64,000 bases of DNA, taken from a bacterium. GTDB taxonomy: Bacteria > Patescibacteriota > Minisyncoccia > Minisyncoccales > DG-74-3. The notes beneath the pieces were generated by a model. It saw only the letters and a program-made list of their open reading frames with translations, made no database searches and was not told the origin of the DNA. The translations under genes were made by a program, and so were the position numbers. Location of the stretch: assembly GCA_030603245.1 (NCBI GenBank), contig JAUVYE010000002.1, forward strand, positions 61 to 64,060, in the 5' to 3' direction. Below are positions 12,553-64,000 of this stretch, piece after piece (positions within the stretch are counted from its first letter, which is position 1; every line of letters starts with the position of its first letter).

Positions 12553-12555
12553 TTT

Positions 12556-20552: not shown

Positions 20553-20587
<35 letters not shown>

Positions 20588-20714: not shown

Positions 20715-20745
<31 letters not shown>

Positions 20746-20895: not shown

Positions 20896-21010
20896 TTTGG
20901 TGGCGGTAATACTAGGGTTGTTCCACCTCTTCCCATTCCGAACAGAGAAGTGAAATACTCTAAGGCCGATGATAGTGCTTTGCGCGAAAGTAGGTAGCCG
21001 CCACCAAAGC
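20896..21010 (+). rRNA. rrf: 5S rRNA
   Basis: TTTGGTGGCGG..CCCATTCCGAACAGAGAAGT..GCCGATGATAGT..GTAGGTAGCCGCCACCAAAGC with terminal helix complementarity. Confidence 0.9.
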
Positions 21011-21056
21011 GCCTTTTTCATTGGAAAAAAAGTGAAATTTTGATATATATATATTA

Positions 21057-21851
21057 ATGAAGATAAATCTAAGAATTCAAAAAGCAGTAATATTGTTTTT
21101 AATTATTGTTTTTTTTATTTCTTTTAATCGTTCTCTACTTCCCAAGAAGCTTAAGAATTCTTTTTATCTTTTTTCTCAACCAATCCAAAAAGTTTTATGG
21201 GAAACAGGAGATAAAATTTCTGATTTTTTGGGAACTATTTTTGAGATTGAAAACTTAAAACAAGAAAACAAACAACTTAGATTAACAATTTTAGAATTAT
21301 TGGGTGATAATTTAAGAATAAAAGAGCTTGAAAAAGAAAATCTTGTTCTTAGACAAGCTTTGGATTTAGGAATAGAGAAAGAACTTAAATTAGAAATAGC
21401 AGATATTATTGGAAAAGATATTTCTCAGGATTCTATTTTAATTAATAAAGGATATGAAGATGGTTTTTCAAAAGATTTAATAATAATAACTCAGCAGAAA
21501 ATTTTGGTTGGAAGAATTTGCGAAGTTTATGAAAATTTTTCAAAAGTAATCTTGCTTTCAAACAAAGAGAGCTTTTTAGACGTTGAAATTGAAAACAAAG
21601 AAATTGAGGGTTTAGTAAAAGGCAAAGGAGATTTTAACCTTTGGCTTGAACTTATTCCTAAAGAAAAAGAAATAGAACAAGGAGACATTATTGTAACCAG
21701 TTCTTTGAGTGGAATTTATCCACAAGGCCTTTTGGTTGGTGAGGTAAAAGAGATTAAAAAGCAAGACCCTGAGCCATTTCAAACAGCAATTATTAATCCA
21801 TTTTTTAATATTAAAGAAACAAAAACCATTTTTATTGTTATTGATTTTTAA
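21057..21851 (+). CDS. mreC: Rod shape-determining protein MreC
   Basis: 264 aa. N-terminal TM, coiled coil (ENLKQENKQLR), C-terminal beta-barrel region ..GIYPQGLLVGEV. Followed by mreD and PBP2. Confidence 0.8.
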   Translation: MKINLRIQKAVILFLIIVFFISFNRSLLPKKLKNSFYLFSQPIQKVLWETGDKISDFLGTIFEIENLKQENKQLRLTILELLGDNLRIKELEKENLVLRQALDLGIEKELKLEIADIIGKDISQDSILINKGYEDGFSKDLIIITQQKILVGRICEVYENFSKVILLSNKESFLDVEIENKEIEGLVKGKGDFNLWLELIPKEKEIEQGDIIVTSSLSGIYPQGLLVGEVKEIKKQDPEPFQTAIINPFFNIKETKTIFIVIDF

Positions 21852-49999: not shown

Positions 50000-50019
50000 T
50001 TTTTATTGATGAGATGTTT

Positions 50020-50089
50020 TATATTGTGCGACATTCAATAGATGATACAAAACCACTGGGGTAGAGGATTGGTGGTTTTTTGATTGACA
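50020..50089 (+). repeat. Left copy of a ~70-nt inverted repeat (box 1 plus hairpin plus TTGAC)
   Basis: TATATTGTGCGACATTCAATAGATGATACAAAACCACTGGGGTAGAGGATTGGTGGTTTTTTGATTGAC, about 90 percent identical to the reverse complement of 54313..54384. Confidence 0.85.
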
Positions 50090-50112
50090 AATACTAATTT
50101 ATATTATATAAT
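50084..50112 (+). promoter_or_regulatory. Consensus promoter (TTGACA-17-TATAAT) for the 64-aa gene
   Basis: Perfect hexamers, with the -35 formed by the end of the repeat. Confidence 0.65.
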
Positions 50113-50128
50113 GAACTCGTGAGTATTT

Positions 50129-50323
50129 ATGCAAGAAAGCGTTCAAGAAACGAAAAAAAATGATCCAGACATGATAGTTTTTCTAGTAACCATCATATGT
50201 TTTATCGTCTTCCTTGTCTGGAGTATTTACAACGAAGAACCACTTGGTATTTTTTTTGCTGTAGGAGCAGGGGGAATTACAGTGGCACTTGCTGTGACAT
50301 ATTGGATGGCTGGTAAAGTCTAA
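50129..50323 (+). CDS. Small two-helix membrane protein
   Basis: 64 aa. Two hydrophobic segments, preceded by a consensus promoter. Confidence 0.45.
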   Translation: MQESVQETKKNDPDMIVFLVTIICFIVFLVWSIYNEEPLGIFFAVGAGGITVALAVTYWMAGKV

Positions 50324-50424
50324 GGAGAAAATCACATAAATAGTTCTATTCCAAGCCGAAAGTCTTAAGACAAGTAGGCGCTTTTTTTTTATTCATCGAA
50401 GAAGGTACGAAATGAATTTTCGAT

Positions 50425-51384
50425 TCATTGAGCTTTTAATTTTTTCCCAGAATGATATTTACGGTGAATGTCGCGGAGACGTTTACTAGTGACATGAGTA
50501 TAGATCTGGGTTGTAACAATGTTTTTGTGACCCAGGAATTCTTGAATAGTTCTTAAATCAACTCCCTGAGTTAATAGATCAGTCGCATAGCTATGACGAA
50601 TAGTATGAGGTGTAGTAGAAATTGGAACTCCTGCCAAGATTGAGTATTTTTTAACAATTCTTTCTATTGAACGGGCAGTTAATCGGCTGTCTGCATCTTT
50701 TCGAGACCTGTAATTAATAAACAGGGCTTTTTCTTTGTCTTTACGGGTTTCTAAATATCTTTTAATCCATTCTAAAGCTCGTTCTGAAAAATAAACAGTT
50801 CTGGGCCTTTCGCCCTTACCAATAATACCCAGCTCTAAATCTTTTTTCTTATTAATATTAGTAAACTGTTCTTGGTTCAAAGAAACTAATTCAGCAATTC
50901 TCAAGCCAGTAGAGAAAAGAGTTTCTAAAATAGCTTTATCGCGCAAACTGCTTCTGGTTCGAGTCTTGGGAGCTTCTAAAAGCTTTTGAATTTGCTCTAA
51001 ATTAAGGAATTTTACTGTTTTGCCCTTTTTAGCACCCTTGGGAAGCTGTATTTTATCAGGGGGGATAGATTGTATATCTTTAGCCACAAAGTAGCTTAAA
51101 ATGGCTCTCAGGGCGATTAAGTAGTAGTTTTGGGTTATCTTTTTAAGTGTTTTACCTCTAATCCTGTATTTTCTTGATAAAAACAGTCTATAGTCCCAAA
51201 TATGTTCATTTGTTAATTGATGAGGGAGTAAATCAGATTTATTAATAGATTTCAACCAAAGAACAAACCTGCTTAGATATCTTTCATAATTTTTCTGAGT
51301 ATTATCTGATAAACCTTTTTCAATCTCACAATAATCTAAAAAATCCGGAATATGATGAATTATTGGTGTTTTTGATCTTTTCAT
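50425..51384 (-). CDS. Tyrosine recombinase (XerC/D / phage-integrase family)
   Basis: 319 aa. N-terminal SAM-like domain. Catalytic residues in ..TGLRIAEL.., HTIRHSYATDLL, LGHKNIVTTQIYTHV. Confidence 0.9.
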   Translation of the reverse strand: MKRSKTPIIHHIPDFLDYCEIEKGLSDNTQKNYERYLSRFVLWLKSINKSDLLPHQLTNEHIWDYRLFLSRKYRIRGKTLKKITQNYYLIALRAILSYFVAKDIQSIPPDKIQLPKGAKKGKTVKFLNLEQIQKLLEAPKTRTRSSLRDKAILETLFSTGLRIAELVSLNQEQFTNINKKKDLELGIIGKGERPRTVYFSERALEWIKRYLETRKDKEKALFINYRSRKDADSRLTARSIERIVKKYSILAGVPISTTPHTIRHSYATDLLTQGVDLRTIQEFLGHKNIVTTQIYTHVTSKRLRDIHRKYHSGKKLKAQ

Positions 51385-51443
51385 ATTTAGGGGAGTTTAA
51401 TGGTATTTAAAGAGAACCCCTTCTAATATGTCGCTTTACCTAC

Positions 51444-51456
51444 ATTGTGCGACATT
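51444..51456 (+). repeat. Box 1 copy (ATTGTGCGACATT) just downstream of the recombinase promoter
   Basis: Exact 13-mer. The local context ACATTGT-GCG-ACATTGT is an internal direct repeat. Confidence 0.85.
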
Positions 51457-51466
51457 GTATATATTC

Positions 51467-51495
51467 ATAATATATGGCAAAAAAAGCCATGTCAA
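51467..51495 (-). promoter_or_regulatory. Recombinase gene promoter (TTGACA-17-TATTAT on the minus strand)
   Basis: Read on the reverse complement. The box 1 copy falls at about +4 to +16 of the predicted transcript. Confidence 0.6.
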
Positions 51496-51558
51496 GTCTC
51501 CTCTTTATATTTACAGGTATAACAAGAAGCTAGGTCGTACAATACAAATCACATTAAA

Positions 51559-52404
51559 TTAATTTAATATTTCTTTAGGAATTAAAACCTGTTCTACCTT
51601 ATCTTTTTCTTTGTCAAAATTGAAGAATCCGATCGAAATATCTTTATATTCTTCCATAAAATTATTATAAAGACTCGTTGCGCGTTTTCTTGTTAATTTC
51701 TTTTCATAAACAAAAATAATAAGTATGGGGATATTAATAATGCTAAATCTAATTCTTCCTGCAATTTTTCTTATGTAATAACGAGTAAGGTTCTCCATCT
51801 CTTTAGGAATATATTTTATTTCAACTATCCTTAAGACTTCGTGGGAATGACTTTTTTTAATTACTCCATCAACTATGATGTCTCCATATTCGCTTTTAAA
51901 TTTGATATTTTTAGAATATCTATTGGTAAATATGTCAAAGAGATGGTCGCCTGTTAGTTGTTCTGCTTTTTGTCTGATCTTAGCGCGACTCTTATAAGAC
52001 ATTCTTCTCTTTTTTCTCTTTGTCTTTTTTTCTTTTTGAATTTGTAGTTTCTCTTTTTCTTCAGATTCATCTTTTTTTATTTTTTCTTCTTGACTCGCCT
52101 TCTCCATCAAAATTTTCGGTATATCAGAACTTTTTGCTTTAAGGATGGCCACAAGTGTTTTCATAAATTCTTCACTGGCTATAATCAAACCGCCTATAAA
52201 AAGAGCGACAATCATAATCTCTTTGTCTCCTGAAAGGATTGCGATCACAAAAACACCAAAACCACCAATTATTTTCTGTAAATTCTTTTGTTCTTGCTTG
52301 CGAAGAATAAAGGCGATAAACGCTAGCAGTATAATAAGCAAAAATAGATATGTTGATATAGCTAGAACACATTCAATGCTTGTAATTATTGAAAGATTTT
52401 GCAT
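51559..52404 (-). CDS. Membrane-anchored protein with a possible C-terminal PD-(D/E)xK nuclease-like domain
   Basis: 281 aa. Three N-terminal TM helices, a K/E-rich linker, then ..GDIIVDGVIKKSHSHEVLRIVEIKY.. (D..17 aa..ExK spacing). Confidence 0.35.
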   Translation of the reverse strand: MQNLSIITSIECVLAISTYLFLLIILLAFIAFILRKQEQKNLQKIIGGFGVFVIAILSGDKEIMIVALFIGGLIIASEEFMKTLVAILKAKSSDIPKILMEKASQEEKIKKDESEEKEKLQIQKEKKTKRKKRRMSYKSRAKIRQKAEQLTGDHLFDIFTNRYSKNIKFKSEYGDIIVDGVIKKSHSHEVLRIVEIKYIPKEMENLTRYYIRKIAGRIRFSIINIPILIIFVYEKKLTRKRATSLYNNFMEEYKDISIGFFNFDKEKDKVEQVLIPKEILN

Positions 52405-52509
52405 TTTGATAAAGAATATTTTTTAATTCCTTAATTTTAGTTTGGTCTTATTTTATAATAAGGTCAAGCTTCATATAGCTCCCTACCCTAGCGATTCTCT
52501 CGCCTATTA

Positions 52510-52522
52510 AATGTCGCACAAT
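52510..52522 (-). repeat. Box 1 copy
   Basis: The reverse complement reads ATTGTGCGACATT followed by TAATAGG, about 105 nt upstream of the 52404 start. Confidence 0.85.
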
Positions 52523-52536
52523 ATTTTTTGTAGTAT

Positions 52537-53331
52537 TTAAATTACACACTGTCCTTGATGTAACATTTTCAACTCTTCTGGTTTTGCAACAAACACGTTT
52601 GTGCCCTTTCGAATGTATACGCGGCCTTCATATTGGTACACATTTTTTCGATTCCATGGGGATACATTAATGATAAATATTTTATAACCCAGTAAATCAT
52701 ACTCTTTAATGGCAATGCTAAGGGCAGGAGAAATACTATTTCTTACACTATTTTGTATTCTCTGATCAAAAACTTGTCGTCGTTGGTCGATTCCAGAGAT
52801 ACTTCCATCATCCTCAACTCCATAAAGAATCAACCCACCCATTTTTGTGTTTGAGAAAGCACATATCTCTTTTGTAATTGATCTCGAGTCAACGCCAGCT
52901 CTCTTAAATTCGTGAATCTGATTTTCTCCATCTTTACATATATTTAGAACCTCATTTTTTGTTGGAAAACCAAGTTTAATAATCTTGCCGGTTTTTATCT
53001 TTTTGCTAATTCTTTGGACTTGATCTTTCTTAATAATTTTGCTTAAGTTTTTAAAATAAGATTTAGAGAGATGTTGGAGTAATGGATTTTTCTCGTAGAT
53101 TCTTCCTCCTTCTTTTTTGAGAATTTTTCCGTGAGCATTTTTCTTGGCAGAAATCAATCCAAAGTCTTTCATTTTTTTTAAATCATTTAAGGTAGGAACT
53201 AGTGATCTGCCAGCTTTTCTGGCTATTTCTTTCGTCAATCTACGACCATTAACTAGTTCAAAAACAGCAAAGCGTTTAGGTGCTCCGCTAAATAACAGTC
53301 TACCTCTGGCTACAAGTTCTTGAAGTTCCAT
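52537..53331 (-). CDS. wHTH plus AlbA_2 (Schlafen-type DNA-binding) domain protein
   Basis: 264 aa. N-terminal wHTH, then C-terminal ..ENQIHEFKRA..ITKEICAFSNTKMGGLILYGVEDDGSISGI typical of AlbA_2. Confidence 0.65.
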   Translation of the reverse strand: MELQELVARGRLLFSGAPKRFAVFELVNGRRLTKEIARKAGRSLVPTLNDLKKMKDFGLISAKKNAHGKILKKEGGRIYEKNPLLQHLSKSYFKNLSKIIKKDQVQRISKKIKTGKIIKLGFPTKNEVLNICKDGENQIHEFKRAGVDSRSITKEICAFSNTKMGGLILYGVEDDGSISGIDQRRQVFDQRIQNSVRNSISPALSIAIKEYDLLGYKIFIINVSPWNRKNVYQYEGRVYIRKGTNVFVAKPEELKMLHQGQCVI

Positions 53332-53336
53332 GAAAT

Positions 53337-53507
53337 TTATTTTTTCTTTATTTTTCTGGCTGGAACCATCCGACTAACAATTGCGGGATCAACTCCTAAA
53401 ACGCTGGCAATATCTTTACTCTGAATGCCTTGATGGGTAAGAGCTAAAACAAGAAGCTTTTTAATGTCATCAAGTAGTTGGTTTGTTTTCTTATTATTCT
53501 TCATCAT
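53337..53507 (-). CDS. Mini-HTH protein, paralog 4 (56 aa, below the ORF-track cutoff)
   Basis: Hand translation: MMKNNKKTNQLLDDIKKLLVLALTHQGIQSKDIASVLGVDPAIVSRMVPARKIKKK*. Same helix-HTH-basic-tail layout as the three upstream genes. Confidence 0.55.
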   Translation of the reverse strand: MMKNNKKTNQLLDDIKKLLVLALTHQGIQSKDIASVLGVDPAIVSRMVPARKIKKK

Positions 53508-53509
53508 AA

Positions 53510-53716
53510 TTATTTAGATTTGTTAGGCTTCTTTATACCTTTTAAAATTTTATTTACACGACCATCACTCATGCCCATAATTTTAGCAATATTATTTTGT
53601 CCAAGATCTGTACTCGCATATAAAAGTCCGACTCCAAGACGTTCCAAGAGTTCAATGGTCCGACCTGAACTGGCAGATTTCGATTGTTTTTTAATTATCT
53701 TCTTCTTTTTCCCCAT
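53510..53716 (-). CDS. Mini-HTH protein, paralog 3
   Basis: 68 aa. ..LGQNNIAKIMGMSDGRVNKILKGIKK. Confidence 0.6.
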   Translation of the reverse strand: MGKKKKIIKKQSKSASSGRTIELLERLGVGLLYASTDLGQNNIAKIMGMSDGRVNKILKGIKKPNKSK

Positions 53717-53718
53717 AG

Positions 53719-53934
53719 TTATTTTCTCTTTTTCTTAAGACGATTTTTTATTACATTTACTGTGTTAGACGATGTATTAAGTATTTCAGCAATCTCAGAA
53801 TTCCCCATTCCGAAACGAGATAGCACCTGGATTCCTTCCGTCGTTGAGAAGTTCTCGGATTGCACATTCATTTGAAGTGCAATTAATACCCCTAATCGCC
53901 TTGCAATAGATTCAAGCAATTCTTTATTTTCCAT
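53719..53934 (-). CDS. Mini-HTH protein, paralog 2
   Basis: 71 aa. ..GMGNSEIAEILNTSSNTVNVIKNRLKKKRK (LuxR / sigma-r4-like HTH). Confidence 0.6.
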   Translation of the reverse strand: MENKELLESIARRLGVLIALQMNVQSENFSTTEGIQVLSRFGMGNSEIAEILNTSSNTVNVIKNRLKKKRK

Positions 53935-53943
53935 GATTATTTT

Positions 53944-54165
53944 TTACTTTTTTTTAAGTTCTGATAATTCTTTACTTATATAGCCGACCTTTTTACTGAG
54001 AATATCTGCAATTTCTGAGGAATTCAGACCAAAAGTAGATAATTCTCTGATTTGTTCCTTAAGCGTTACTTCTTCACACTCATTTGCAATTTTCAACAAA
54101 AGAGAGATAACAATGCTTAATTTGCGATCAATTGATTGGGTGATATTATTATTTTCTTTTGACAT
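53944..54165 (-). CDS. Mini-HTH protein, paralog 1
   Basis: 73 aa. ..GLNSSEIADILSKKVGYISKELSELKKK. Confidence 0.6.
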   Translation of the reverse strand: MSKENNNITQSIDRKLSIVISLLLKIANECEEVTLKEQIRELSTFGLNSSEIADILSKKVGYISKELSELKKK

Positions 54166-54203
54166 ATAATTGACTGTTAAGTAAATAAAAGAGATCCATA
54201 GTT

Positions 54204-54232
54204 ATTATAGTCCCTTAAAATATACTGTCAAG
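54204..54232 (-). promoter_or_regulatory. Consensus promoter of the mini-HTH operon (TTGACA-17-TATAAT on the minus strand)
   Basis: Perfect hexamers on the reverse complement, about 40 nt upstream of the 54165 start. Confidence 0.65.
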
Positions 54233-54312
54233 TGGTAATACTACTATTTACCTATGTAACAAATTTTATCAATAAATTTTAGTACGACTTAAGTCTTTAT
54301 TCATGCATTGAG

Positions 54313-54384
54313 CGTCAAAATCAAAAAACCACCAGTCCTCTCCCCTAGTGGTTTTATATCACCTATTAAATGTCGCACTATATA
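54313..54384 (-). repeat. Right copy of the ~70-nt inverted repeat (contains box 1 at 54369..54381)
   Basis: The reverse complement reads TATAGTGCGACATTTAATAGGTGATATAAAACCACTAGGGGAGAGGACTGGTGGTTTTTTGATTTTGAC. It also acts as a hairpin-plus-T-run terminator after the protease gene. Confidence 0.85.
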
Positions 54385-54499
54385 CCTTATGCGATATTAT
54401 GGTGTCCTAGCGGCTATCCCCTAGTCGGTCTCGAACTTGTGGTTTAATAGGAAATTCAAGGGTTTTTGGGAATATCCCACAACGCGTCTCTGTAATAGT

Positions 54500-55426
54500 T
54501 CAAGGAGATATGTCTCCTAGAAGAGATTTAGCATAATTTATAGAAGTAGAAAAGCCAATCCCTACTTGATTAACTTCTCCTGTATATCTTAAATTTCTAT
54601 TATAAGTTTCGACAGATAAAGAAATTGGGTCCACTCCGCCTATTCTCATTATTGGCTCATAATTTTCAGGTAATTTTAAAAATAATTTCTCTGGTATCTG
54701 ATTAAATCTTGCGTTTATTATCCCAATAACTTTTCCGCTTTTAACTGAAAATAATGGCCCACCGCTATTTCCTTGGTTTACGAAGGCATTTATAGTATAA
54801 ACATCAACACTCTCTTTGTCTTCTTTATATTTCGATTTTGTTTTTGCAGATATTATGCCCGTATGAGTAATGGGGAATCTAAAAATTAATGGGAATCCAA
54901 TAAACGCTACTTCTTCACCTTCTTTTACTTCATTATAATCTCCTAATTCTAAAAAATTGAGCCCACTAACTTCTATTTTAATTATTGCAATATCAGCATC
55001 TTCATTAAAATTAAGCACTTTTGCTTTATAATCTTTTGACTTGCCATTTTCTTGAACAGAGACTATAATATTACCTGTATTATTCTCTATTACATGATTA
55101 GCGGTTATAATATAGCCGTCTTCAGAATAAATAAAACCAGTTCCAGAAGACCATACTTTATTATCCATCTCTAGATATTCTCCACCAGTAAGAGGTATTT
55201 CTTTTAGATTAGTTTCTGCAATTATACAAACTATAGATGGTTTTATTTTTTCCACTAGATCAGGGAGTGTTTCAAGTTTCACATATCCCTCACTTTTTAA
55301 TTTAGAAACTTCCTTTTTTGTCATTTCTAATTCATCCTTTAGGTAATTATAAGCTAAAATACCTAAAATTAGAAATATAACTATTAGTATAATGAAAATG
55401 TAAATTGGAATTGGCTTTTTAAGCAT
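54500..55426 (-). CDS. Membrane-anchored trypsin-like (S1) serine protease without a PDZ domain
   Basis: 308 aa. N-terminal TM, with the triad in TANHV (His), DIAIIK (Asp) and GNSGGPL (Ser). Confidence 0.8.
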   Translation of the reverse strand: MLKKPIPIYIFIILIVIFLILGILAYNYLKDELEMTKKEVSKLKSEGYVKLETLPDLVEKIKPSIVCIIAETNLKEIPLTGGEYLEMDNKVWSSGTGFIYSEDGYIITANHVIENNTGNIIVSVQENGKSKDYKAKVLNFNEDADIAIIKIEVSGLNFLELGDYNEVKEGEEVAFIGFPLIFRFPITHTGIISAKTKSKYKEDKESVDVYTINAFVNQGNSGGPLFSVKSGKVIGIINARFNQIPEKLFLKLPENYEPIMRIGGVDPISLSVETYNRNLRYTGEVNQVGIGFSTSINYAKSLLGDISP

Positions 55427-55542
55427 ACTAAAGTTTGTAATATATAAAAATAAGGTTTTTCTTTGATTGAAGGTAATTTTTTTCTACCTTTTACCATATA
55501 TAGCAATAATGGTAGAGATTTTTCTTAAGATTTTCTCAATTC

Positions 55543-56583
55543 TTAATTTTCTGGAATATTCCTAGAATTTTTTTTTCTTCTAGATGCGACAGCCATCTTT
55601 TTACCCGTAAGCTTGAGGAAGCACTTGCGACATAATATCATATATTTTAATGAAGAGCTCTCTTTTGGATTTAAGCGGGTTATGTAAAAATCTCTTCCCA
55701 TCTCTCGAAAGACAGAAAATCGATCTTTTCCGCACATTTCGCATTTACCGTCCACACGAGAAATTATTTTTTCCCTCCGTTTTCCTCTGAAGACGCCGCT
55801 ACATCTTTCACATAGACCATATTTAAAGTGTGGCAGTATCGTTGTTCCACATTGCTTACACTGGATATAATATCGACTCCATCTTTTCGGTTTTTCTAAT
55901 TTTGTTGCTTTTTTGTTTCCTGTTTCCGCTTTTATTTTTTTTACTCGTTGATCGCGTAATGTTCCGTGCCTTTTCTTTTCTTGTTTTAAAACTTCTTCTA
56001 TATCAATTTCAAATCCTTGATCTATCTTTTCGGCAATTTCCCTTAAGATTCCAATCGTAATAATTTGCCTTATACGTTCTCTCGTTAGTTTCCACTCTTT
56101 CGCGATATGTGCGAGCGTTTTACCTAAACGCCACTCTTCTAACATTGATTTTTCTCGTTCTAGCATAATAAACGAAGGCGACGCAGCTCTTAATCTTTGG
56201 AGCATTCCTTTCCACTGCAATTCAACAGTTATAGTCTTTTCTTTGACGATTTTTTCTGGTTTCCTCAATATTCGCAACTCTTGCCCTCTGAACATTGCTC
56301 GAAGGCTTTCTATCTCTCGTTGCAATGCCTCTTTTTTTTGAAGATCGGATTTAATTTTTGCATATGCATAAATGGCTGTAGTATGATCTCTGTTACCGAT
56401 TCGGCGTCCAATCTCGGGATAAGAATTACGGAGATCCTCACGAAGGAAATACATAATTATGTGTCTTGCTTTTACTAATTCTTTTTTGCGACACCTACTT
56501 CTTATGTCTTTGACAGATACGTTGTAAAACCCAGCGACAGTTTCGATGATTTTTTTAGTAGAAATAATTTTTGTTTCGTTCAT
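55543..56583 (-). CDS. DnaA-domain-IV plus sigma-70-region-4 HTH plus C-terminal Cys-rich (Zn-ribbon) protein
   Basis: 346 aa. N-terminus ..VSVKDIRSRCRKKELVKARHIIMYFLRE..SYPEIGRRIGNRDHTTAIYAYAKI matches the DnaA C-terminal DNA-binding domain. Middle GKTLAHIAKEWKLTRERIRQI. C-terminal CKQCG..CERC..CEMCG..CRKC. Confidence 0.7.
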   Translation of the reverse strand: MNETKIISTKKIIETVAGFYNVSVKDIRSRCRKKELVKARHIIMYFLREDLRNSYPEIGRRIGNRDHTTAIYAYAKIKSDLQKKEALQREIESLRAMFRGQELRILRKPEKIVKEKTITVELQWKGMLQRLRAASPSFIMLEREKSMLEEWRLGKTLAHIAKEWKLTRERIRQIITIGILREIAEKIDQGFEIDIEEVLKQEKKRHGTLRDQRVKKIKAETGNKKATKLEKPKRWSRYYIQCKQCGTTILPHFKYGLCERCSGVFRGKRREKIISRVDGKCEMCGKDRFSVFREMGRDFYITRLNPKESSSLKYMILCRKCFLKLTGKKMAVASRRKKNSRNIPEN

Positions 56584-56615
56584 TTTTTATAAATTCATTG
56601 ATTATCTAGAAATCA

Positions 56616-58703
56616 TTAAGTAGAATTTGATGGAGAATAGGTTTCTTCGAACAGAAATTCTTCCAAATCGACTGTGGCTGCTGTATGAATTTTAGTAATT
56701 AACGCACCCATGATACTATTATCAATTCTATCGGCTCGAAAATTATCTGGATCTCTCTTTTGAAGTTCATATAGAGCTTCTTTTACAAAAATATCCACAT
56801 ATCGTTGGAAAAGATAATCTTTCCATCGTTTTGACTCAGCACCCCCTGATTCTCTTTTTAAAATAGCATTAGCAAGTGAGCTTGAAGTATTGATCCAATA
56901 GATTCCTTCAGGGACATCTTGAGGCCTCTGATAAACTACGGGTTCACGAGGCATGAGTACTACTATTCCTTCGGGCGCAATACCTAAAGGGTCTAGGTCG
57001 TGACCAGATAGTAAAACTTTCGGATGTCTAGATTTTTTACCACTACCTGATTTTGCTTCGATAACAGTTATTTTCATTTCGTCCGAATACTTTCCAGCTC
57101 TAGCAATTATTTTTCCCTCTTCTCCAATGCGCCTCCCAGTAACATTAATGTTCATTACTGCAACTGTTTTTCCTTCTTCGGTTAATTTCACGAAATCTGA
57201 TTTCGCGGTAATTTTATTGTTTTCAAGTTCGATTAGTTGGTTATTGCTTCTAATTGAGATAATGCTTCCGATTGGAATCGGATCTGAGACGGCAGCCTTA
57301 AGAGTTAGAGGTGAACTTTGATTGATTGGTATCTCGGCAGCTCTAAATGTAAATTCAATACCATTCTCTGGAACCTTCAGGAGTTTTCTTAAGAATCGAC
57401 TCTTACCGCTAACGCCAGGTTTTATACCTTCACCGAAGATCTCTGAAAAAACTTTTTTCATAAATTTATCCTTCCAGAGATTAAGAATTTCGTTATGTGC
57501 TGAAGAAAACTTTTTCATTTCTTCACTTCTTTTCTTTTGTTCTTTAGCACTAATTTCTGAAGCAAGTTCGTCAATTCGTTCCGCGATCCAATGAAGAAGA
57601 GCTAAAGTAGTTTCGTTCTCTACCAATTTTGTTCTATCATTCTTTACGCAATCTTCTTGAGGATTCTCTAAAATGGGACATTTACATTCGCCGTAAATAA
57701 AAGAAGCTTGTGGGAATGTCATAACTCTCAATTCGGAAATTCTATATGAAGCAATTATACCTAACTCACCTACGAAATCAATGCGGTTTAAATCGCTTAA
57801 TTTTCCACTTCCGCTCAATGCTTGCTCAGACGTTTTGAGAATAAGTTTACCCGATGAAAATTTTGGATTGGTCAATTTAACCGTAACTTTTTCGTTCCCT
57901 GATTCAAAAATAAGCGTTTTGGGGATTTCTGCTATTTTTGGTTTTTCAAAATCTAGCAATGCTATTATTTTTTCTGGACGCAGAAGATCATGGAGATATT
58001 CTTCATTATAAATAGCGGAAACATTAATTCTTGCCAGGATTCTTCGAGATTGAGGGTGATTTTTAAATTTTTCGATAATTCTTCTTACTTTAATTTTATT
58101 CTTCATATTAGCCGGAGCAAAACCTACCACAACGGTAAAACCGGTTTTACCTAAGAGAATTTTCTGCTTGACGTTAATCGGAAAAATAAGTCGATCTATG
58201 CCTGCTAGTTTCAATGCTTTTTCCGGCTTCATCTTTTTATTTTTATATCCTTTCGCGAAGCCATACTTTTTTCTTTCGTTAAATCCGAAAATATTAAAAT
58301 ATCCATTACTATAAGTAATGAAATGAGAACGATTAAACATCTGACGCATATAAAACTTCCCTCCATTTCCGTGCCCACCGTAGGTTTGCTTTTTTAAACC
58401 TCTTTTCGCGGCTTCCGGATCCCCCCACCTTTTAAGTGCCTTGATGATGTCGTTTTCCGTCATTCCAACGAAATCAATACATTCAATAGAGGCATTACTA
58501 TCTTTACTCTCGGTGAAGCGGAAAATAATATGGTTCTCGGAATCTGGTGTGTCGGTGCGAATATACGCATCGACTGAATTTTTCAACCATTCTGCAAGAC
58601 CCTTTGCATGGTCAAATTTAAATTCATTACCAATAATATCGAGCAAATGATCATCGATAACATTTTTCTCTTCTAAAATTTTTAAAGATGTAATTTTTGC
58701 CAT
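56616..58703 (-). CDS. GHKL-superfamily (MORC/MutL/Hsp90-like) ATPase with a large uncharacterised C-terminal region
   Basis: About 695 aa from the ATG at 58703, since the track start at 58724 is TTG. Bergerat motifs: LAEWLKNSVDAY (N box), IDFVGMTENDI (G1), TYGGHGNGGKFYM (G2). The remaining ~560 aa have no motif I recognise. Confidence 0.7.
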   Translation of the reverse strand: MAKITSLKILEEKNVIDDHLLDIIGNEFKFDHAKGLAEWLKNSVDAYIRTDTPDSENHIIFRFTESKDSNASIECIDFVGMTENDIIKALKRWGDPEAAKRGLKKQTYGGHGNGGKFYMRQMFNRSHFITYSNGYFNIFGFNERKKYGFAKGYKNKKMKPEKALKLAGIDRLIFPINVKQKILLGKTGFTVVVGFAPANMKNKIKVRRIIEKFKNHPQSRRILARINVSAIYNEEYLHDLLRPEKIIALLDFEKPKIAEIPKTLIFESGNEKVTVKLTNPKFSSGKLILKTSEQALSGSGKLSDLNRIDFVGELGIIASYRISELRVMTFPQASFIYGECKCPILENPQEDCVKNDRTKLVENETTLALLHWIAERIDELASEISAKEQKKRSEEMKKFSSAHNEILNLWKDKFMKKVFSEIFGEGIKPGVSGKSRFLRKLLKVPENGIEFTFRAAEIPINQSSPLTLKAAVSDPIPIGSIISIRSNNQLIELENNKITAKSDFVKLTEEGKTVAVMNINVTGRRIGEEGKIIARAGKYSDEMKITVIEAKSGSGKKSRHPKVLLSGHDLDPLGIAPEGIVVLMPREPVVYQRPQDVPEGIYWINTSSSLANAILKRESGGAESKRWKDYLFQRYVDIFVKEALYELQKRDPDNFRADRIDNSIMGALITKIHTAATVDLEEFLFEETYSPSNST

Positions 58704-58704
58704 A

Positions 58705-59316
58705 TTATTGAGTTTTATAATCAATTATATCTTTAAACTTCTTAAGTATAAATTTGTTAAAATCTAATATTTTATTATGTAAAAGCTTTCTTTTTTTGTA
58801 AGATTTTAATTCTTTGATTACACTCTTCATAGCTGCTAGTCTACCTAAAAAATCTATTTTTCCGGTTTTTACGGTTATTCCCAAATAACTATAAAAATCT
58901 GTATCTGATATTTTTGATTCTTCTCTTTGTAGAAACAATCTAAAGCTTTCTAGCGATTTTATGCGCGATATTTCCATTTCGGTATATTTTGAAAAATGAA
59001 GAGAAGGAAGAATACTTTTCCCCTCAACAATTTTATTGATTTTTTTTGCAACCTCTATGCCGTAATTAGTTAGGGAAAAAAGTTTATTATTTATCGAAAC
59101 AAAACCATTTTCTTTGGTTTTATAAAGAGGCCTATGGATAGAGAACGAATCGGGATATTCTGGATAACCGAGTAATTGAAATTCTTCAGGATATTTTTTA
59201 AATAAAGCAACTACAATATCTTCAAATTGAAGAGATTTCTTTTTTTTGCCAGAGAGTTCATAAAGCATTAAGAGAATTTTTTGTGAACGTGATAAATTAT
59301 AAAATAATTTTTTCAT
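58705..59316 (-). CDS. Hypothetical protein with a probable N-terminal winged-helix domain
   Basis: 203 aa. ..ILLMLYELSG..FEDIVVALFKKYPEEF..ENGFVS..LFSLTNYGIEVAKK resembles wH modules such as Mrr_N. Its stop lies 1 nt before the GHKL ATG. Confidence 0.4.
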   Translation of the reverse strand: MKKLFYNLSRSQKILLMLYELSGKKKKSLQFEDIVVALFKKYPEEFQLLGYPEYPDSFSIHRPLYKTKENGFVSINNKLFSLTNYGIEVAKKINKIVEGKSILPSLHFSKYTEMEISRIKSLESFRLFLQREESKISDTDFYSYLGITVKTGKIDFLGRLAAMKSVIKELKSYKKRKLLHNKILDFNKFILKKFKDIIDYKTQ

Positions 59317-59327
59317 GTATTTGATAA

Positions 59328-59549
59328 TTAAAGTTGAAATTCTTTTTCTTTTGGAAAATGAAATTTTGCCCTTACCTCTTTCACCTTTCGCTCAATTTCT
59401 GAAAAAATTTTATTTATCTCTTCTTCTGTATATTCATAAGCACTTCTGTTTGAACAATTTCCAAGCACCCTAAGTCTTTTTAAAACCTCATTAGTTCTAT
59501 AAACGGCTAATCGTTTAAATCTTTCTCTTTTATCATTTTTTGTAATCAT
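59328..59549 (-). CDS. Small helical hypothetical protein, first gene of the GHKL operon
   Basis: 73 aa, basic N-terminus (KRERFKRLAVYRTNEVLKRLR). 11 nt upstream of the next gene. Confidence 0.4.
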   Translation of the reverse strand: MITKNDKRERFKRLAVYRTNEVLKRLRVLGNCSNRSAYEYTEEEINKIFSEIERKVKEVRAKFHFPKEKEFQL

Positions 59550-59587
59550 GTTTTTATGTTATTTAATAAATCCTATCACCATCTTAC

Positions 59588-59608
59588 ATAAGGATATCAT
59601 ATCCTTAT
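59588..59608. promoter_or_regulatory. Perfect 10-1-10 palindromic operator overlapping the GHKL-operon promoter
   Basis: ATAAGGATAT-C-ATATCCTTAT. Covers the -10 (TATCCT, 59591..59596) and most of the spacer. Confidence 0.6.
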
Positions 59609-59619
59609 CGTATTGTCAA
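59591..59619 (-). promoter_or_regulatory. GHKL-operon promoter (TTGACA-17-TATCCT on the minus strand)
   Basis: Read on the reverse complement, about 45 nt upstream of the 59549 start. Confidence 0.55.
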
Positions 59620-59640
59620 TACCCTTATTTGTAAATAAAC

Positions 59641-59666
59641 AAAAATGCCCCGTTTGGGGCTTTTTA
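59641..59666 (-). terminator. Terminator after the restriction endonuclease gene
   Basis: AAAAATGCCCC-GTTT-GGGGCTTTTT (symmetrical). Confidence 0.7.
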
Positions 59667-59715
59667 CTTGATAAAACTTCCTTTGATTTTAAGCAAATTT
59701 TCTTAATTTTTTCTT

Positions 59716-60399
59716 TCATATTCTCAAGTTATGTTTCTTAATAACCAAATTAAGAGCTTTTCTCCACTTAAAAGGATCGTACCAAAAACAACCTTCACAT
59801 CCTTGGGGGTCATGGGGATCAATTTTTTTATCCCATTTTTCACCGCCTTTATAGAAAAAATTAATTCCTGGGAAAGTTCCTCGCAAACCTGTCTTATAAC
59901 ATTTTTGGCAATATCTGCTTTTCCACAGATTATTTGCTCTAGTTAATAACATAAATCTTTCTTGAATTTCTTTATTACTCATATCTAGGGGATTCTCTGG
60001 TTCTTCTTTCCCCCATCTTACTTGTGGAAATTTATGATCAACTTCTAACATGTTTGGAGGGAAATCACTCCTTAAGGTAATTGCTTCAATACATCTATAA
60101 TATTTTTTTATTCTTTTTTTTAATTTCATCGGAAATTTTGAACGAGTAAATATTCGGGCATCTTCTTTTTTTTCTAAAGATACTAATTTTCTATGAACTG
60201 TTTTCTCTTTACATTGTTTGCAATAAACCGTTTTATTCTCAATCTCAAAGCCGTGCTGCCTAATTATTTGTATTGCCTTTGCCGGTTGAGTACCAGGTAG
60301 CTCATGTTTTGAACAATGCCAATCTAAATCGGATAATACAATAAATGTTTTATATAATTTTGTACTTTCCTTAAAAGGAATTTTCTTTTTTTCTATCAT
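59716..60399 (-). CDS. HNH (beta-beta-alpha-Me) restriction endonuclease with Cys-rich Zn sites
   Basis: 227 aa. ..MLEVDHKFPQVRWG..LLTRANNLWKSRYCQKC.. plus CKQCKEK and CEGC. Lies 6 nt downstream of a DNA methyltransferase gene. Confidence 0.65.
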   Translation of the reverse strand: MIEKKKIPFKESTKLYKTFIVLSDLDWHCSKHELPGTQPAKAIQIIRQHGFEIENKTVYCKQCKEKTVHRKLVSLEKKEDARIFTRSKFPMKLKKRIKKYYRCIEAITLRSDFPPNMLEVDHKFPQVRWGKEEPENPLDMSNKEIQERFMLLTRANNLWKSRYCQKCYKTGLRGTFPGINFFYKGGEKWDKKIDPHDPQGCEGCFWYDPFKWRKALNLVIKKHNLRI

Positions 60400-60405
60400 C
60401 GTTTT

Positions 60406-61212
60406 TTATGATTTTTGAAAAACTAAAATATATTCGTGCCTAAAGATATAAAAACCACCGGCCAATGCTCTATATCTCCACAGGTGTTCTTGATTTCGTT
60501 TCGCCCTATTACCTACTATATTCTTAACTAAGATGCTTTTTAACCTTAAATCGGGGTTTTTCATTGTCTCTTGCATAGTGTAAAATGCTAACGGCACCCA
60601 CTCAGAGTTTGTATATTTGTCTCCAATCACAATAGCTAGGTAATGGTTCTTTTCTAATAAATCTGTAAAGTTGTTTACGACGTCTCCAAACTTTTTAAGA
60701 AAATCTTCTAGCGTTTTAGCGTTACACAAATCGTCAGAGTTGTTACTAAATTTGATAATGTCGTGATAGGGTGGGTGCATTATGATAAGTTGGACATCTT
60801 TCTTTCCATAATTTTTTAACATCTGAATTGTTAAATCTCTCGTCTTTTTTTTGGTGCTATCGCCAACGATAATACTTACTTGAATTTTCCCATTGAGAAA
60901 TTTTTGTTTGGCGATATTATTTTTAGCCGCTTTTGCAATTTTTGGAATCAATTCAATTCCTATACCATGTCTTCCTAATCTTCTGCATTCAATTAATGTA
61001 GTGCCACCACCTAAAAAAGCATCTAAAACCACATCTCCTTTTTTAGTAAATCTCCTCATTAGCTGATTAGGGATTTGAGGGATAAAATTACCGTGGTATT
61101 CTCCTGTGTGAGCACCCGATTTATCTCTGGCGCCAATAATCCAAAGACTATCAGTAAAGATGTCTTCGTATTCTTTCCAGTTATTTAAATTTAAATCATT
61201 AATTTTTGACAT
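60406..61212 (-). CDS. Site-specific DNA methyltransferase (N6-adenine or N4-cytosine)
   Basis: 268 aa. Motif I VLDAFLGGGTT and motif IV IMHPPY, with motif I N-terminal to motif IV. Confidence 0.8.
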   Translation of the reverse strand: MSKINDLNLNNWKEYEDIFTDSLWIIGARDKSGAHTGEYHGNFIPQIPNQLMRRFTKKGDVVLDAFLGGGTTLIECRRLGRHGIGIELIPKIAKAAKNNIAKQKFLNGKIQVSIIVGDSTKKKTRDLTIQMLKNYGKKDVQLIIMHPPYHDIIKFSNNSDDLCNAKTLEDFLKKFGDVVNNFTDLLEKNHYLAIVIGDKYTNSEWVPLAFYTMQETMKNPDLRLKSILVKNIVGNRAKRNQEHLWRYRALAGGFYIFRHEYILVFQKS

Positions 61213-61228
61213 ATCTTATTCTATCTTT

Positions 61229-61257
61229 ATTTTATCCTCAATAACTGAAAAATTCAA
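61229..61257 (-). promoter_or_regulatory. R-M operon promoter (TTGAAT-17-TAAAAT on the minus strand)
   Basis: Read on the reverse complement, 17 nt upstream of the 61212 start. Confidence 0.5.
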
Positions 61258-61309
61258 ACACAAGATGAAATTCATATATTAGTAGCTTCTATTGCGATAT
61301 TTTAGCTTA

Positions 61310-61322
61310 AATGTCGCACAAC
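61310..61322 (-). repeat. Box 1 copy (variant)
   Basis: The reverse complement reads GTTGTGCGACATT. It abuts the first 30-nt box 2 repeat. Confidence 0.8.
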
Positions 61323-61350
61323 ATAGATTGTGCGTCTAAATCAAAAAACC
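61321..61350 (+). repeat. Box 2 30-mer, copy 1
   Basis: ACATAGATTGTGCGTCTAAATCAAAAAACC, then hairpin CCAC-TCAATCG-GTGG and a T-run. Confidence 0.9.
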
Positions 61351-61442
61351 ACTCAATCGGTGGCTTTTTAACTTCTTCAAACTAATAACTTAGTTATTGG
61401 CTTGAAAAAAAAGTAGGATATTGTTTTCTTTGTCTAGAGCGT

Positions 61443-61802: not shown

Positions 61803-61864
61803 CGTTTATTATTCTAACATTAATTTTTTCGTTTGTCAAGAAAAAACTAGTTAAGTGATCTACA

Positions 61865-61894
61865 ACATAGATTGTGCGTCTAAATCAAAAAACC
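61865..61894 (+). repeat. Box 2 30-mer, copy 2
   Basis: Identical 30-mer ACATAGATTGTGCGTCTAAATCAAAAAACC. Confidence 0.9.
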
Positions 61895-61927
61895 GGACCA
61901 GAGGACTTTTTTTATCTTATTTCCCAA

Positions 61928-62371: not shown

Positions 62372-62421
62372 ATGGATAAAAAGCCGTCTTCTCGGGCGGT
62401 TTTTTGTTTTTGAGTTCTAGA

Positions 62422-62451
62422 ACATAGATTGTACGTCTAAATCAAAAAACC
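62422..62451 (+). repeat. Box 2 30-mer, copy 3
   Basis: ACATAGATTGTACGTCTAAATCAAAAAACC (1 mismatch), then hairpin CGCC-TGATT-GGCG and a T-run. Confidence 0.9.
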
Positions 62452-62482
62452 GCCTGATTGGCGATTTTTTAACTTTTTAAAT

Positions 62483-63886: not shown

Positions 63887-63992
63887 TACTTGATCAAATT
63901 ATTGAAATTTTAGCTTTTTTGTTTGGGCCATAATTCTATATATGAAACTTGAAACCACCTCTTTGGCGATTTTTGTGTGTGAACGTCATACT

Positions 63993-64000
63993 ACATAGAT
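63993..64000 (+). repeat. Box 2, probable copy 4, truncated by the window end
   Basis: The window ends in ..CTACATAGAT, matching the first 8 nt of the 30-mer and the same xxACATAGAT context as the other copies. Confidence 0.5.

Follow-up and report, generated by a model that had tools for sequence, protein, structure and literature searches.

Chromosomal systems that depend on a single Xer recombinase have been recognised by a site that lies beside the recombinase gene, coincides with a skew peak, is non-coding and forms an inverted repeat around a hexanucleotide (PMC5357621, PMC2731167). The Legionella element LME-1 has a 22-bp att site and one of its flanking sites is incomplete (PMC9765430), and the pdif modules of Acinetobacter are small, recombinase-less gene modules with 28-bp borders of the XerC/D type that are shuffled between replicons (PMC6449649, PMC13141974). 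Here we consider a 13-nt box in a 64-kb window (the whole stretch of DNA that was analysed), which a preliminary description had read either as an operator shared across an island or as a set of recombination sites through which the adjacent Xer-like recombinase delimits gene modules. The latter reading is supported in substance by linkage to the recombinase gene, by an arm-6 bp-arm build and by one box-bounded block insertion or deletion. Judging from the sequence, it is quite probable that the box is the conserved arm of about 11 bp (ATGTCGCACAA on the other strand) of putative sites for this XerC/XerD-like recombinase, at the replication terminus.

The box and the adjacent recombinase gene

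Scanning for ATTGTGCGACATT with up to two mismatches returned exactly five matches in the window, all within 50.0-61.3 kb, with exact copies at 50023 (+), 51444 (+) and 52510 (-) and copies with one mismatch each at 54369 (-) and 61310 (-). These are the five copies originally described, and the box is absent from the first 50 kb, as had been judged by eye; shuffled sequence gave a mean of 1.03 matches and none of 100 shuffles reached five. Our checks for absence covered the window and the 10-kb flanks of related loci. Start codons lie 94, 106, 204 and 98 nt downstream of four copies, in line with the range of about 95-200 nt given before, and promoters matching at 11-12 of 12 positions are found where they had been placed, at 50084-50112 (+), 54231-54204 (-) and 51495-51467 (-). 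The extension ATTGTGCGACATTyAATAGG, which had been attributed to three copies, is exact in copy 3 and differs in copy 4 solely by that copy's one box mismatch, but copy 1 ends in AATAGA rather than AATAGG. Copies 1 and 4 form the ends of a 66-nt inverted repeat (50020-50085 and 54319-54384, 89% complementary) in which the box is followed, after about 15 nt, by a terminator-like hairpin. There is also a second, related box (ATTGTGCGTC / GACGCACAA), located at 61328, 61872 and 62429 and, as a weak copy, at 54302. The arm pattern GWCGYAYAA has nine matches against 0.83 expected, eight of them within 50.0-62.5 kb. No convincing dif architecture had been seen previously, a view that we revise, as the pattern GWCGCAYAA-N6-TTRTGCGWC with up to three mismatches identifies four full 9-6-9 sites in the window (51430-51453, 54372-54395, 61313-61336 and 61857-61880) where 0.04 are expected, the third of these with no mismatches.

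The recombinase gene (50425..51384, minus strand) encodes a tyrosine recombinase of 319 aa whose catalytic residues (R..K..HxxR..H..Y) are all intact. It scores 220-225 bits against models for XerD, XerC and tyrosine recombinases, and its closest solved structure is XerD (E = 1.6e-40). Its promoter (TTGACA-17-TATTAT, 51467..51495, minus strand) has a short inverted repeat in the spacer. Box copy 2 is part of a two-armed, Class I 28-bp dif-like site, ATGTCGCACAA-TGTAGG-TAAAGCGACAT (51428..51455, minus strand), which falls within the leader of the recombinase's own mRNA, from about +5 to +32, taking the transcript start as about 7 nt past the -10 hexamer. Copy 1, a one-armed site with an AT-rich centre (AATGTCGCACAA + TATAAA; 50018..50035, minus strand), comes immediately after the recombinase terminator, where genes of the left replichore meet the recombinase gene. 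The hairpin at 50049..50081 (A-run, 11-bp stem, 9-nt loop and T-run), which is the inner part of the repeat at 50020-50085, looks like a bidirectional terminator. Between copy 1 and the recombinase gene sits an ORF for a 64-aa membrane-like protein (50129..50323, plus strand) with its own 12/12 promoter at 50084-50112; this ORF is missing in the close relatives L004 and L006.

Relatives of the recombinase were found on more than 460 metagenome contigs, of which we kept 80 (69-96% identical), and across the 76 distinct loci assessed for the motif, all gathered by recombinase similarity, the same motif flanks the recombinase gene. The arm G[TA]CGCACAA occurs in these loci at 5.4 per 10 kb in the first kb upstream of the gene and 8.5 per 10 kb in the first kb downstream, compared with 0-0.8 per 10 kb elsewhere within 10 kb, apart from 1.7 in the second kb downstream. 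The leader site was found with no more than seven mismatches in 49 of 66 assessable loci, and 42 leader sites yield a consensus that is conserved throughout the 28 bp, the centre included. Directly past the recombinase terminator, a one-armed site AAATGTCGCACAA-TATTAA, to which copy 1 corresponds in the window, is seen in 53 of 69 assessable loci. The conserved arm is single here and in most copies outside the leader, giving a non-standard core. Each centre is conserved separately, TGTAGG in the leader vs TATTAA after the terminator, which indicates that these two sites are not products of one exchange.

The cumulative GC skew of the window peaks at about 50-51 kb, genes converge just past the recombinase gene, and in all 20 loci with enough flank the skew is positive upstream of this gene and negative downstream. 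The flip in strand and skew at 50 kb is therefore the replication terminus, and what had been framed as an island regulon is variable DNA beside it, the recombinase and its site being a conserved chromosomal module and not island cargo. Nor is the box specific to the island. The hosts are tiny, Nealsonbacteria-like CPR bacteria that carry the recombinase gene at their replication terminus.

Junction elements and turnover of gene blocks

Copies 3-5 and the second box GACGCACAA belong to junction elements that separate accessory-gene blocks, three or four of them being full 9-6-9 sites. Such an element runs from the gene end through an accessory arm, a terminator hairpin and the 9-6-9 core to a promoter and the next gene. 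Upstream of the recombinase promoter, the slot extending to an inverted box element encodes a 281-aa membrane protein (51559..52404, minus strand) and is occupied by different genes in close relatives. That element, with copy 3 (52470..52527, plus strand), consists of a degenerate hairpin region followed by AAATGTCGCACAA-TATTTT, is inverted with respect to copies 1 and 2, and is 92.6% identical to L002:5965-6018. Beyond it, module A (52537..54165, minus strand, promoter 54231-54204) encodes an AlbA_2/Schlafen-domain protein and four small HTH-like ORFs and has no homologues in the other box-bearing loci. In the composite junction containing copy 4 (54302..54397, plus strand), a degenerate second core arm (54302-54318) is followed by a hairpin (54325-55) and then by a full 11-6-11 site, ATGTCGCACTA-TATACC-TTATGCGATAT (54370-54397, plus strand). 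Module B (54500..61212, minus strand) carries a trypsin-like protease, a DnaA-C-domain protein, a 702-aa HATPase-like protein, small ORFs and a type II restriction enzyme with its methylase. At its far end, copy 5 and the second box are the arms of a palindromic full site with no mismatches, ATGTCGCACAA-CATAGA-TTGTGCGTCTA (61311..61338), adjoined by a hairpin at 61339-61373; this layout of hairpin, core and promoter recurs in L004, L005 and L006. Two further elements lie on the minus strand, one at 61857..61915 (a good GACGCACAA arm, the centre TCTATG, a degenerate partner arm and a hairpin-like stretch) and one at 62414..62474, after the terminator of a DEAD-box helicase gene (GACGTACAA-TCTATG and a degenerate arm). 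Read directly from the sequence, a partial site GTCATACTA-CATAGAT (63985..64000, plus strand) is cut by the window end.

Close relatives, in which the recombinase gene is 88-91% identical in DNA, have nothing in common with the window's 51.5-61.3 kb except short copies of the repeat elements, and instead carry arrays of one- and two-gene blocks upstream of the recombinase with the same composite elements between them. In one relative, L052, a 4.2-kb block has a box element on either side where L058 and L002 have a single element, and homology of the flanks ends and restarts at the box. Another, L064, has two direct-repeat sites with 5.3 kb between them, and the sites in arrays are mostly direct repeats rather than alternating inverted ones. 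The copies upstream of the recombinase are inverted relative to the leader site, which simple single-site integration would not yield. The box lies at an edge in only two of about eight indels near the recombinase gene. Since the elements are 60-140 nt long, homologous recombination could also explain the gain and loss of blocks.

Perfect GTCGCACAA-N6-TTGTGCGAC sites were also present in 38 phage contigs, where at most about 1.5 are expected (scaled from 46 matches of a 32-bit pattern), and a terminase gene lies downstream of the site in 22 of the 38. The phage sites are perfect palindromes in the DNA, and their 6-bp centre varies. The examined DNA of the site-bearing contigs contains no Xer-like gene. 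The phage contigs have no DNA in common with the 83 host loci (the window and 82 contigs), among which an integrated form is thus not seen.

A mechanism that may connect these observations is one in which each arm takes one recombinase monomer, two cores synapse, and the recombinase catalyses strand exchange at positions 6 bp apart in the centre, such that circular DNA with a matching site is inserted or excised at the cores. The leader site may be the one that resolves chromosome dimers and may also mediate autorepression, and block turnover would be driven by the recombinase rather than by homologous recombination. The outcome would be that gene blocks or integrase-less phages make up a variable, cassette-like region next to the terminus.

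Alternative roles for the box

The other reading first proposed was that the box is the operator of an HTH protein from the island (mini-HTH, AlbA_2 or DnaA-C) and marks out an island regulon. The island does encode at least six HTH-type proteins, and the four copies upstream of start codons share the polarity of the downstream unit. However, none of the three proteins has a homologue among the 82 box-bearing loci, where the recombinase is the sole gene consistently linked to the box (80+ related loci), and without such co-occurrence the operator reading fails. In addition, copies 1 and 4 lie at the 3' end of the preceding unit with a terminator hairpin between box and promoter, and in related loci the same box follows unrelated genes. 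We consider this role most improbable. Only copy 2 is placed as an operator might be, and it is probably bound by the recombinase itself. It is conceivable, though unlikely, that the boxes are purely regulatory or architectural (autorepression, roadblocks or polar terminus elements), with the recombinase or another conserved host factor as the binder and no exchange of blocks. The leader site occupies a classic repressor position, box orientation, which reverses at the terminus, tracks transcription and replication, the one-armed sites cannot make up a standard core, and the phage sites precede terminase genes, a possible operator position. Against this, the recombinase is the only conserved gene linked to the sites that could encode a regulator, and recombination is the better fit to the hypervariable content beside the sites, to the block indel at the elements and to an arm-6 bp-arm build whose centre varies. 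LexA was also tried as the binder and rejected; the lexA promoter in two box-bearing contigs has GAAC-N4-GTNC and not the box.

The length of the elements in the window's clade, their terminators, the duplication of whole elements (more than the core) around the L052 block and the lack of a box at the edges of most nearby indels would suit passive intergenic repeats, each a terminator with its flank, that spread and become uniform through homologous recombination while RecA drives block turnover. This seems quite unlikely to us given that distant relatives keep only the 14-18-nt box at its fixed position after the terminator, next to hairpins of unrelated sequence, that the leader site has no more than four mismatches in most loci whose recombinases are just about 70% identical, and that unrelated phages carry perfect palindromic versions. 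All copies are probably transcribed, in the leader or between stop codon and terminator, and the leader (AAUGUCGCACAAU) could pair over 13 nt without mismatch with AUUGUGCGACAUU in the 3' UTRs of its neighbours, or form a regulatory hairpin. We think an action in RNA very unlikely, though, as the leader palindrome shows no significant covariation, its outer pairs are frequently disrupted and conservation in its 14-nt 'loop' equals that of the stem, which argues for a DNA site; there is no matching Rfam family, and the palindromes in phage DNA vary in their centre.

Comparison with known systems

If the box is indeed a recombinase arm, the locus resembles XerS/difSL of streptococci and lactococci, XerH/difH of epsilon-proteobacteria and XerL/dif of Legionellales, each with one Xer-family gene, an immediately adjoining non-coding site of two inverted arms and a short centre, and a peak in GC skew (PMC5357621, PMC2731167, PMC9765430). 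It differs in that the protein is nearer to XerC/XerD than it is to XerS or XerH, the site lies within a transcribed leader, it is the outer halves of its arms (ATGTCGC/GCGACAT) that are palindromic, and a second conserved, one-armed site follows the gene. Xer-type invertases of Mycoplasma and Ureaplasma (Ureaplasma parvum mba, PMC3599477) likewise combine an Xer-like gene, nearby short sites in both orientations and a small genome; here, unlike there, there is neither a surface-protein gene family nor a single shared promoter, and inversion between the sites is hypothetical. As with integrons (IntI, attI, attC), a tyrosine recombinase gene is accompanied by its own site and adjoins an array of short cassettes separated by structured repeats of 60-140 nt, with one core box conserved and its partner degenerate. 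Yet the protein scores 89 bits against an integron-integrase cut-off of 265, the GTTRRRY core is absent, the cassettes have their own promoters and terminators, and the recombinase gene is co-directional with the array.

IMEX such as CTX-phi, TLC-phi, the gonococcal island and LME-1 are recombinase-less DNA with dif-like flanks next to the chromosomal dif. The phage contigs, with their site mimics, are similar, as is the incompleteness that one flanking site can show in LME-1. In contrast to IMEX, no integrated phage was seen among the 83 host loci, the phages are tailed with terminases rather than filamentous, many of the host copies face the opposite way to the leader site, and the cargo blocks hold metabolic, restriction-modification and defence-like genes. 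The analogy to Acinetobacter pdif modules, drawn in the preliminary description, falls short in arrangement, since here the cores are mostly direct repeats and not alternating C/D-D/C, the locus is chromosomal and at the terminus rather than on a plasmid, and the junctions add an accessory arm, a terminator and a promoter. It holds for the modules themselves, several blocks of one or two genes being bordered here by dif-like cores.

Boxes and two-armed sites in the window

When the window was scanned with ATTGTGCGACATT, the 13-nt box, allowing up to two mismatches, five matches were returned, namely copy 1 at 50023 (+), copy 2 at 51444 (+), copy 3 at 52510 (-), copy 4 at 54369 (-) and copy 5 at 61310 (-), exactly the coordinates and strands first noted. 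Shuffled sequences held 1.03 copies on average and none of 100 shuffles reached five, confirming that the set is non-random, and the same scan found no copy in the first 50 kb, an absence which the preliminary description had reported from inspection by eye. The distances it had given between box and start codon (94-204 nt) and its promoters were also correct. At copies 1 and 4 a terminator lies between the box and the next promoter; both boxes are part of the 3' end of the unit before them. The same two copies bound a 66-nt inverted repeat (50020-50085 and 54319-54384, 89% complementary), in which the box is followed by about 15 nt and then by a hairpin composed of an A-run, a stem-loop and a T-run.

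A sister box, ATTGTGCGTC (opposite strand, GACGCACAA), was located at 61328, 61872 and 62429, with a weak copy at 54302, and several of the boxes are arms of two-armed sites. The pattern GWCGCAYAA-N6-TTRTGCGWC, at up to three mismatches, gave four matches in the window (51430-53, 54372-95, 61313-36, which is perfect, and 61857-80) against 0.04 expected. Given this excess, a dif-like architecture is present, and the earlier view that no convincing dif architecture could be seen has to be given up. The perfect core has copy 5 as its right arm and the sister box as its left. The cores of copies 1 and 3 are degenerate, and each of the elements at 61857 and 62414 has a single good arm.

Two further features of the non-coding DNA in this region were seen. 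An extra arm-like 9-mer, GTCGTACAA (51534-51542), is inverted relative to the site in the recombinase leader and lies between the stop codon of a 281-aa gene and the recombinase promoter, near the point (51496) at which homology with the close relatives L004, L005 and L006 ends. On the outer side of copy 4, the stretch 54398-54482 (TATGGTGTCCTAGCGGCTATCCCCTAGTCGGTCTCGAAC...) recurs in L006 (82% identical, 119 nt), and its first 25 or so nucleotides come after similar sites in L005 and L004 as well; Rfam gave no match for the stretch and its folding z-score was only modest.

The recombinase gene, the sites beside it and the replication terminus

The product of the gene at 50425-51384 (-) is 319 aa long and carries the full set of catalytic residues (R-K-H-R-H/W-Y); its best solved relative is XerD. 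It scores 220-225 bits against the XerD, XerC and tyrosine-recombinase models and, since these scores are below both equivalog cut-offs, it is Xer-like but assignable to neither XerC nor XerD. Exact-protein look-up returned no match for this recombinase or for the neighbouring DNA-alkylation-repair protein. Scanning a genome collection with the extended box pattern identified two Candidatus Nealsonbacteria (CPR) assemblies in which the same elements adjoin a homologous recombinase gene, the remaining match being a chance one inside a Niallia CRISPR array. A metagenome scan yielded more than 460 contigs that encode relatives of the recombinase, and from these 80 relatives (69-96% identical) were kept, their loci being oriented on the recombinase gene. 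In a few loci (L056, L081 and L038) a second Xer paralogue lies near the gene.

Two sites are fixed around this gene in the related loci. Upstream, a promoter (TTGACA-17-TATTAT) is followed, from about +5 of the transcript, by ATGTCGCACAA-TGTAGG-TAAAGCGACAT, the leader site, which is copy 2 in the window (51428-51455): about 28 bp of non-coding DNA with two inverted arms around a centre. It was found with no more than seven mismatches, and mostly no more than four, in 49 of the 66 assessable loci, 34-361 nt upstream of the recombinase start codon, with about 70 nt the commonest distance. When we compared it with E. coli dif, taking GGTGCGCATAATGTATATTATGTTAAAT from PMC2731167, 16 of 28 positions were identical, and the palindromic sites of the window's clade, such as TTAGCGCATAA-TACATG-TTATGCGTCAT in L006, are nearer to E. 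coli dif than the leader site is. Downstream, the stop codon is followed by a terminator hairpin, about 15 nt and then AAATGTCGCACAA-TATTAA, the post-terminator site (copy 1 in the window, 50018-50035), present in 53 of 69 loci; its conservation is limited to one arm and the centre, and this centre differs from that of the leader site. We considered the conserved hairpin as a component of the site, but it is kept in the window's clade alone, and distant loci retain just the box beside an unrelated terminator. In 10 loci the kilobase upstream of the gene contains hairpin plus box in inverted orientation, the counterpart of copy 3.

The density of 9-mer arms is 5.4 per 10 kb in the kilobase upstream of the gene and 8.5 in the kilobase downstream, against 0-0.8 in the rest of the 10 kb on either side, except for 1.7 in the second kilobase downstream. 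The box therefore travels with the recombinase gene and not with the island.

Two observations on the recombinase promoter and leader stand apart from these sites. The 17-nt promoter spacer (51473-51489 in the window, and at the same position in L004-L083) contains a short inverted repeat, ATGGCTTTTTTTGCCAT in the window and GGCCTTTTTGGCC, GGGGGTTTTAGACCCC or CACCGTGTTTTGGCACGGT elsewhere, the arms of which vary between loci with their complementarity kept. The leader (51385-51427 in the window, and in related loci) has no GGAGG-type ribosome-binding site and ends C-rich, as (C)CACTCCCC(T/C)AAATATG; a G-rich stretch that precedes this end could pair with it.

The location of the gene also has a consistent signature. 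Twenty loci have 5 kb or more on each side of the gene, and in every one of them GC skew, read on the recombinase strand, goes from positive values upstream (mean +0.10) to negative values downstream (mean -0.15). The cumulative skew of the window peaks at about 50-51 kb, and genes on both sides point toward the recombinase gene and converge directly after it. What had been framed as an island is the terminus region, the skew changing sign at the gene in every one of these loci. The G-rich hairpin loops (GGGNAGRG) were examined as KOPS-like elements and show a 13:1 strand bias in the left 50 kb, but this is about what GC skew alone predicts and the reading was dropped.

Other readings of the box were weighed against that of recombination sites. 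An operator for the HTH proteins of the island, forming a regulon, had been proposed on account of boxes upstream of transcription units; the regulator genes, however, do not co-occur with the sites, the terminators at copies 1 and 4 part the boxes from the promoters, and the island proteins of the window (among them AlbA_2, four mini-HTH proteins and DnaA-C) have no homologue in any of the related loci, so the proposal was rejected. The recombinase is the sole candidate binder that is always present at box loci. The leader palindrome could fold as RNA, and here 39 distinct sequences were available for comparison; covariation was not significant, outer pairs are often broken, the 14-nt "loop" is conserved as strongly as the stem, and Rfam gave no family match at or near any box. 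The box might have been the local SOS box, were it not that the lexA promoters of two box-bearing contigs, L061 (3380-3415) and L081 (4400-4435), have a GAAC-N4-GTNC palindrome instead: between their -35 and -10 hexamers they carry GAACAATTGTCC and GAACAATTGTAC, which are probably the local LexA box, of the GAAC-N4-GTTC type. On this comparative evidence the leader site is best regarded as a DNA site rather than as an RNA element or the operator of another factor.

Gene blocks at the junctions and matching sites in phage contigs

The close relatives L004, L005 and L006, whose recombinase genes are 88-91% identical to that of the window in DNA, differ in everything upstream of the recombinase promoter, and 51.5-61.3 kb of the window has no counterpart in them save short copies of the repeat elements. 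The upstream intergenic junctions of this clade share a composite of about 135 nt, in which the end of a gene is followed by an accessory arm (ATATTGTGCGACATT), about 15 nt, a terminator hairpin, a full core (GWCGCAYAA-N6-TTRTGCGTC), ATTTTGCTTTTT and then the promoter and the next gene; copy 4 has this composite form and, outside it, a further full site. Between the same junctions the relatives carry other blocks of one or two genes, for example a metK-like gene or a C5-methylase pair, and the cargo of the window comprises a type II restriction-modification pair, HTH proteins and a trypsin-like protease with defence-system profile matches. Segments bounded by dif-like sites and lacking a recombinase of their own are found at 52523-54370 and 54398-61310 in the window, at 3948-8243 in L052 and at 11001-16297 in L064.

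In L052 a 4.2-kb block (two glycosyltransferases, a radical-SAM protein and a HAD hydrolase) occupies a position where L058 and L002 have a single element; homology of the left flank ends at the box of the first element and that of the right flank resumes at the second, so an empty site with its breakpoint at the site is seen against both contigs. No close relative of the window has an empty site where one of the blocks of the window lies. In L064 two direct sites with similar right flanks lie 5.3 kb apart just downstream of the gene, and in L027 a 1.2-kb insertion abuts the post-terminator box. A systematic survey counted about eight independent indels near the gene; the box is at the edge in only two of them and most are not box-bounded.

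The arrays in L004 (3477, 5102 and 6493) and in the window (52511, 54370 and 61311) are direct repeats, the sole inverted pair in the window being copies 1 and 4. The upstream copies are inverted; since the copies are oriented with transcription and replication, the cause may be polarity and not inversion events. In L005 the site at 54370-54397 is found downstream of the recombinase gene, in the window and L006 upstream and inverted, which could be taken as inversion of the recombinase segment; that reading is unsafe as the flanking site is itself a repeat.

Other variable DNA was also recorded. The metK-like gene lies beside a recombinase site both in the upstream array (L004:4040-5113) and downstream of the recombinase gene (L027:6609-7800), and its leader, judged by eye, resembles a SAM riboswitch. 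A block of about 6 kb (L006:12808-19013, L004:11878-18169), located between the counterparts of window 48909 and 48901 and missing from the window, encodes 499-aa and 732-744-aa MHCxxC proteins that look heavy-metal-like by eye; neither edge of the block showed a box. In the rRNA operon (window 12500-21100), the 23S match spans 3813 nt compared with a 2925-nt model and a group II intron D1-D4 match follows directly after 16S (14368-14450), which suggests insertions in or beside the rRNA genes.

In scans of phage contigs, the one-armed pattern gave 46 matches, mostly at chance level and inside coding sequence, and the leader-type site gave none. Only the two-armed patterns were clearly non-random: of 17 matches three had perfect arms, and the unspecified base before CGAC was G in 14. 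The perfect palindrome GTCGCACAA-N6-TTGTGCGAC was present in 38 IMG/VR phage contigs (L130, L137, L138 and L143-L177; GC 27-53%), where scaling from the first scan predicts at most about 1.5. The site centres are variable and mostly AT-rich, resembling the centre of the one-armed site, and in 22 of the 38 contigs a terminase large-subunit gene lies 170-2300 nt downstream of the site and is transcribed away from it, a placement shared by five more phage contigs of earlier scans. No Xer-like gene was detected in the phage contig DNA searched, and comparison with the 83 host loci revealed no shared DNA or protein and no integrated copy. Because conserved arms around a free 6-bp centre have the look of a recombinase core, it is likely that this mobile DNA uses the same recombinase protein. 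Near the phage sites, GGGTAG/CTACCC is about 6-fold enriched within 80 nt, and AACAGGGG, CCCCACC and AAGCCAT recur; in the host elements the hairpin loops are likewise filled with GGGTAG.

Interpretation and comparison with known systems

Taken together, the data support the reading of the boxes as recombination sites of the adjacent Xer-like recombinase, which the preliminary description had offered as one of two, and sharpen it. The boxes would be arms to which the recombinase binds, no site is a better candidate for dimer resolution and autorepression than the leader site, and the remaining sites may be attachment sites or junctions through which accessory blocks, and perhaps phages too, come and go. 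To judge from sequence comparison, the module is of the Xer/dif type; its terminus region, cassette-like and with multiple sites, is unusual, and it has a link to phages. A more far-reaching proposal, which we put forward tentatively and consider rather doubtful, is that one Xer-type recombinase in Nealsonbacteria-like CPR acts as the terminus recombinase, serves an integron-like cassette platform and is exploited by integrase-less tailed phages. Self-contained cassettes, each with a promoter, terminator, accessory arm and dif-like core, would then be captured or exchanged at the terminus, and the phages would use their perfect palindromic site just upstream of terminase for integration, cyclisation or multimer resolution.

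CPR bacteria (Patescibacteria) have tiny genomes and are mostly uncultured, and little is known of their chromosome maintenance and mobile DNA; in the literature searched we found no description of a dif/Xer system or of this motif in CPR. The module offers a testable candidate of one gene and a 28-bp site that could be assayed in E. coli, as XerL has been (PMC9765430). It would also explain the position of the patch of restriction-modification and defence-like genes, and the perfect sites in the 38 phage contigs may, provided that the hosts are confirmed, serve as markers that link CPR phages with their hosts.

The closest parallels are the single-recombinase systems XerS/difSL, XerH/difH and XerL, in which an Xer gene adjoins a two-armed non-coding site at the skew peak (PMC5357621, PMC2731167, PMC9765430), the same gene-linked arrangement as is found here. 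Membership of the integrons was rejected: IntI has an extra domain and attC sites have GTTRRRY cores, whereas the recombinase reaches 89 and 54 bits with the integron-integrase models (cut-offs 265 and 435), matching through its C-terminal part alone, and its sites have different cores. The likeness to the pdif modules of Acinetobacter plasmids holds in part, in that blocks without their own recombinase are bounded by dif-like sites; the flanking sites are direct repeats here, however, whereas pdif sites are inverted and alternate along the array. How those plasmid modules move is still unsolved; what the present loci point to is a naturally occurring system on a chromosome, its gene blocks bounded by dif sites.
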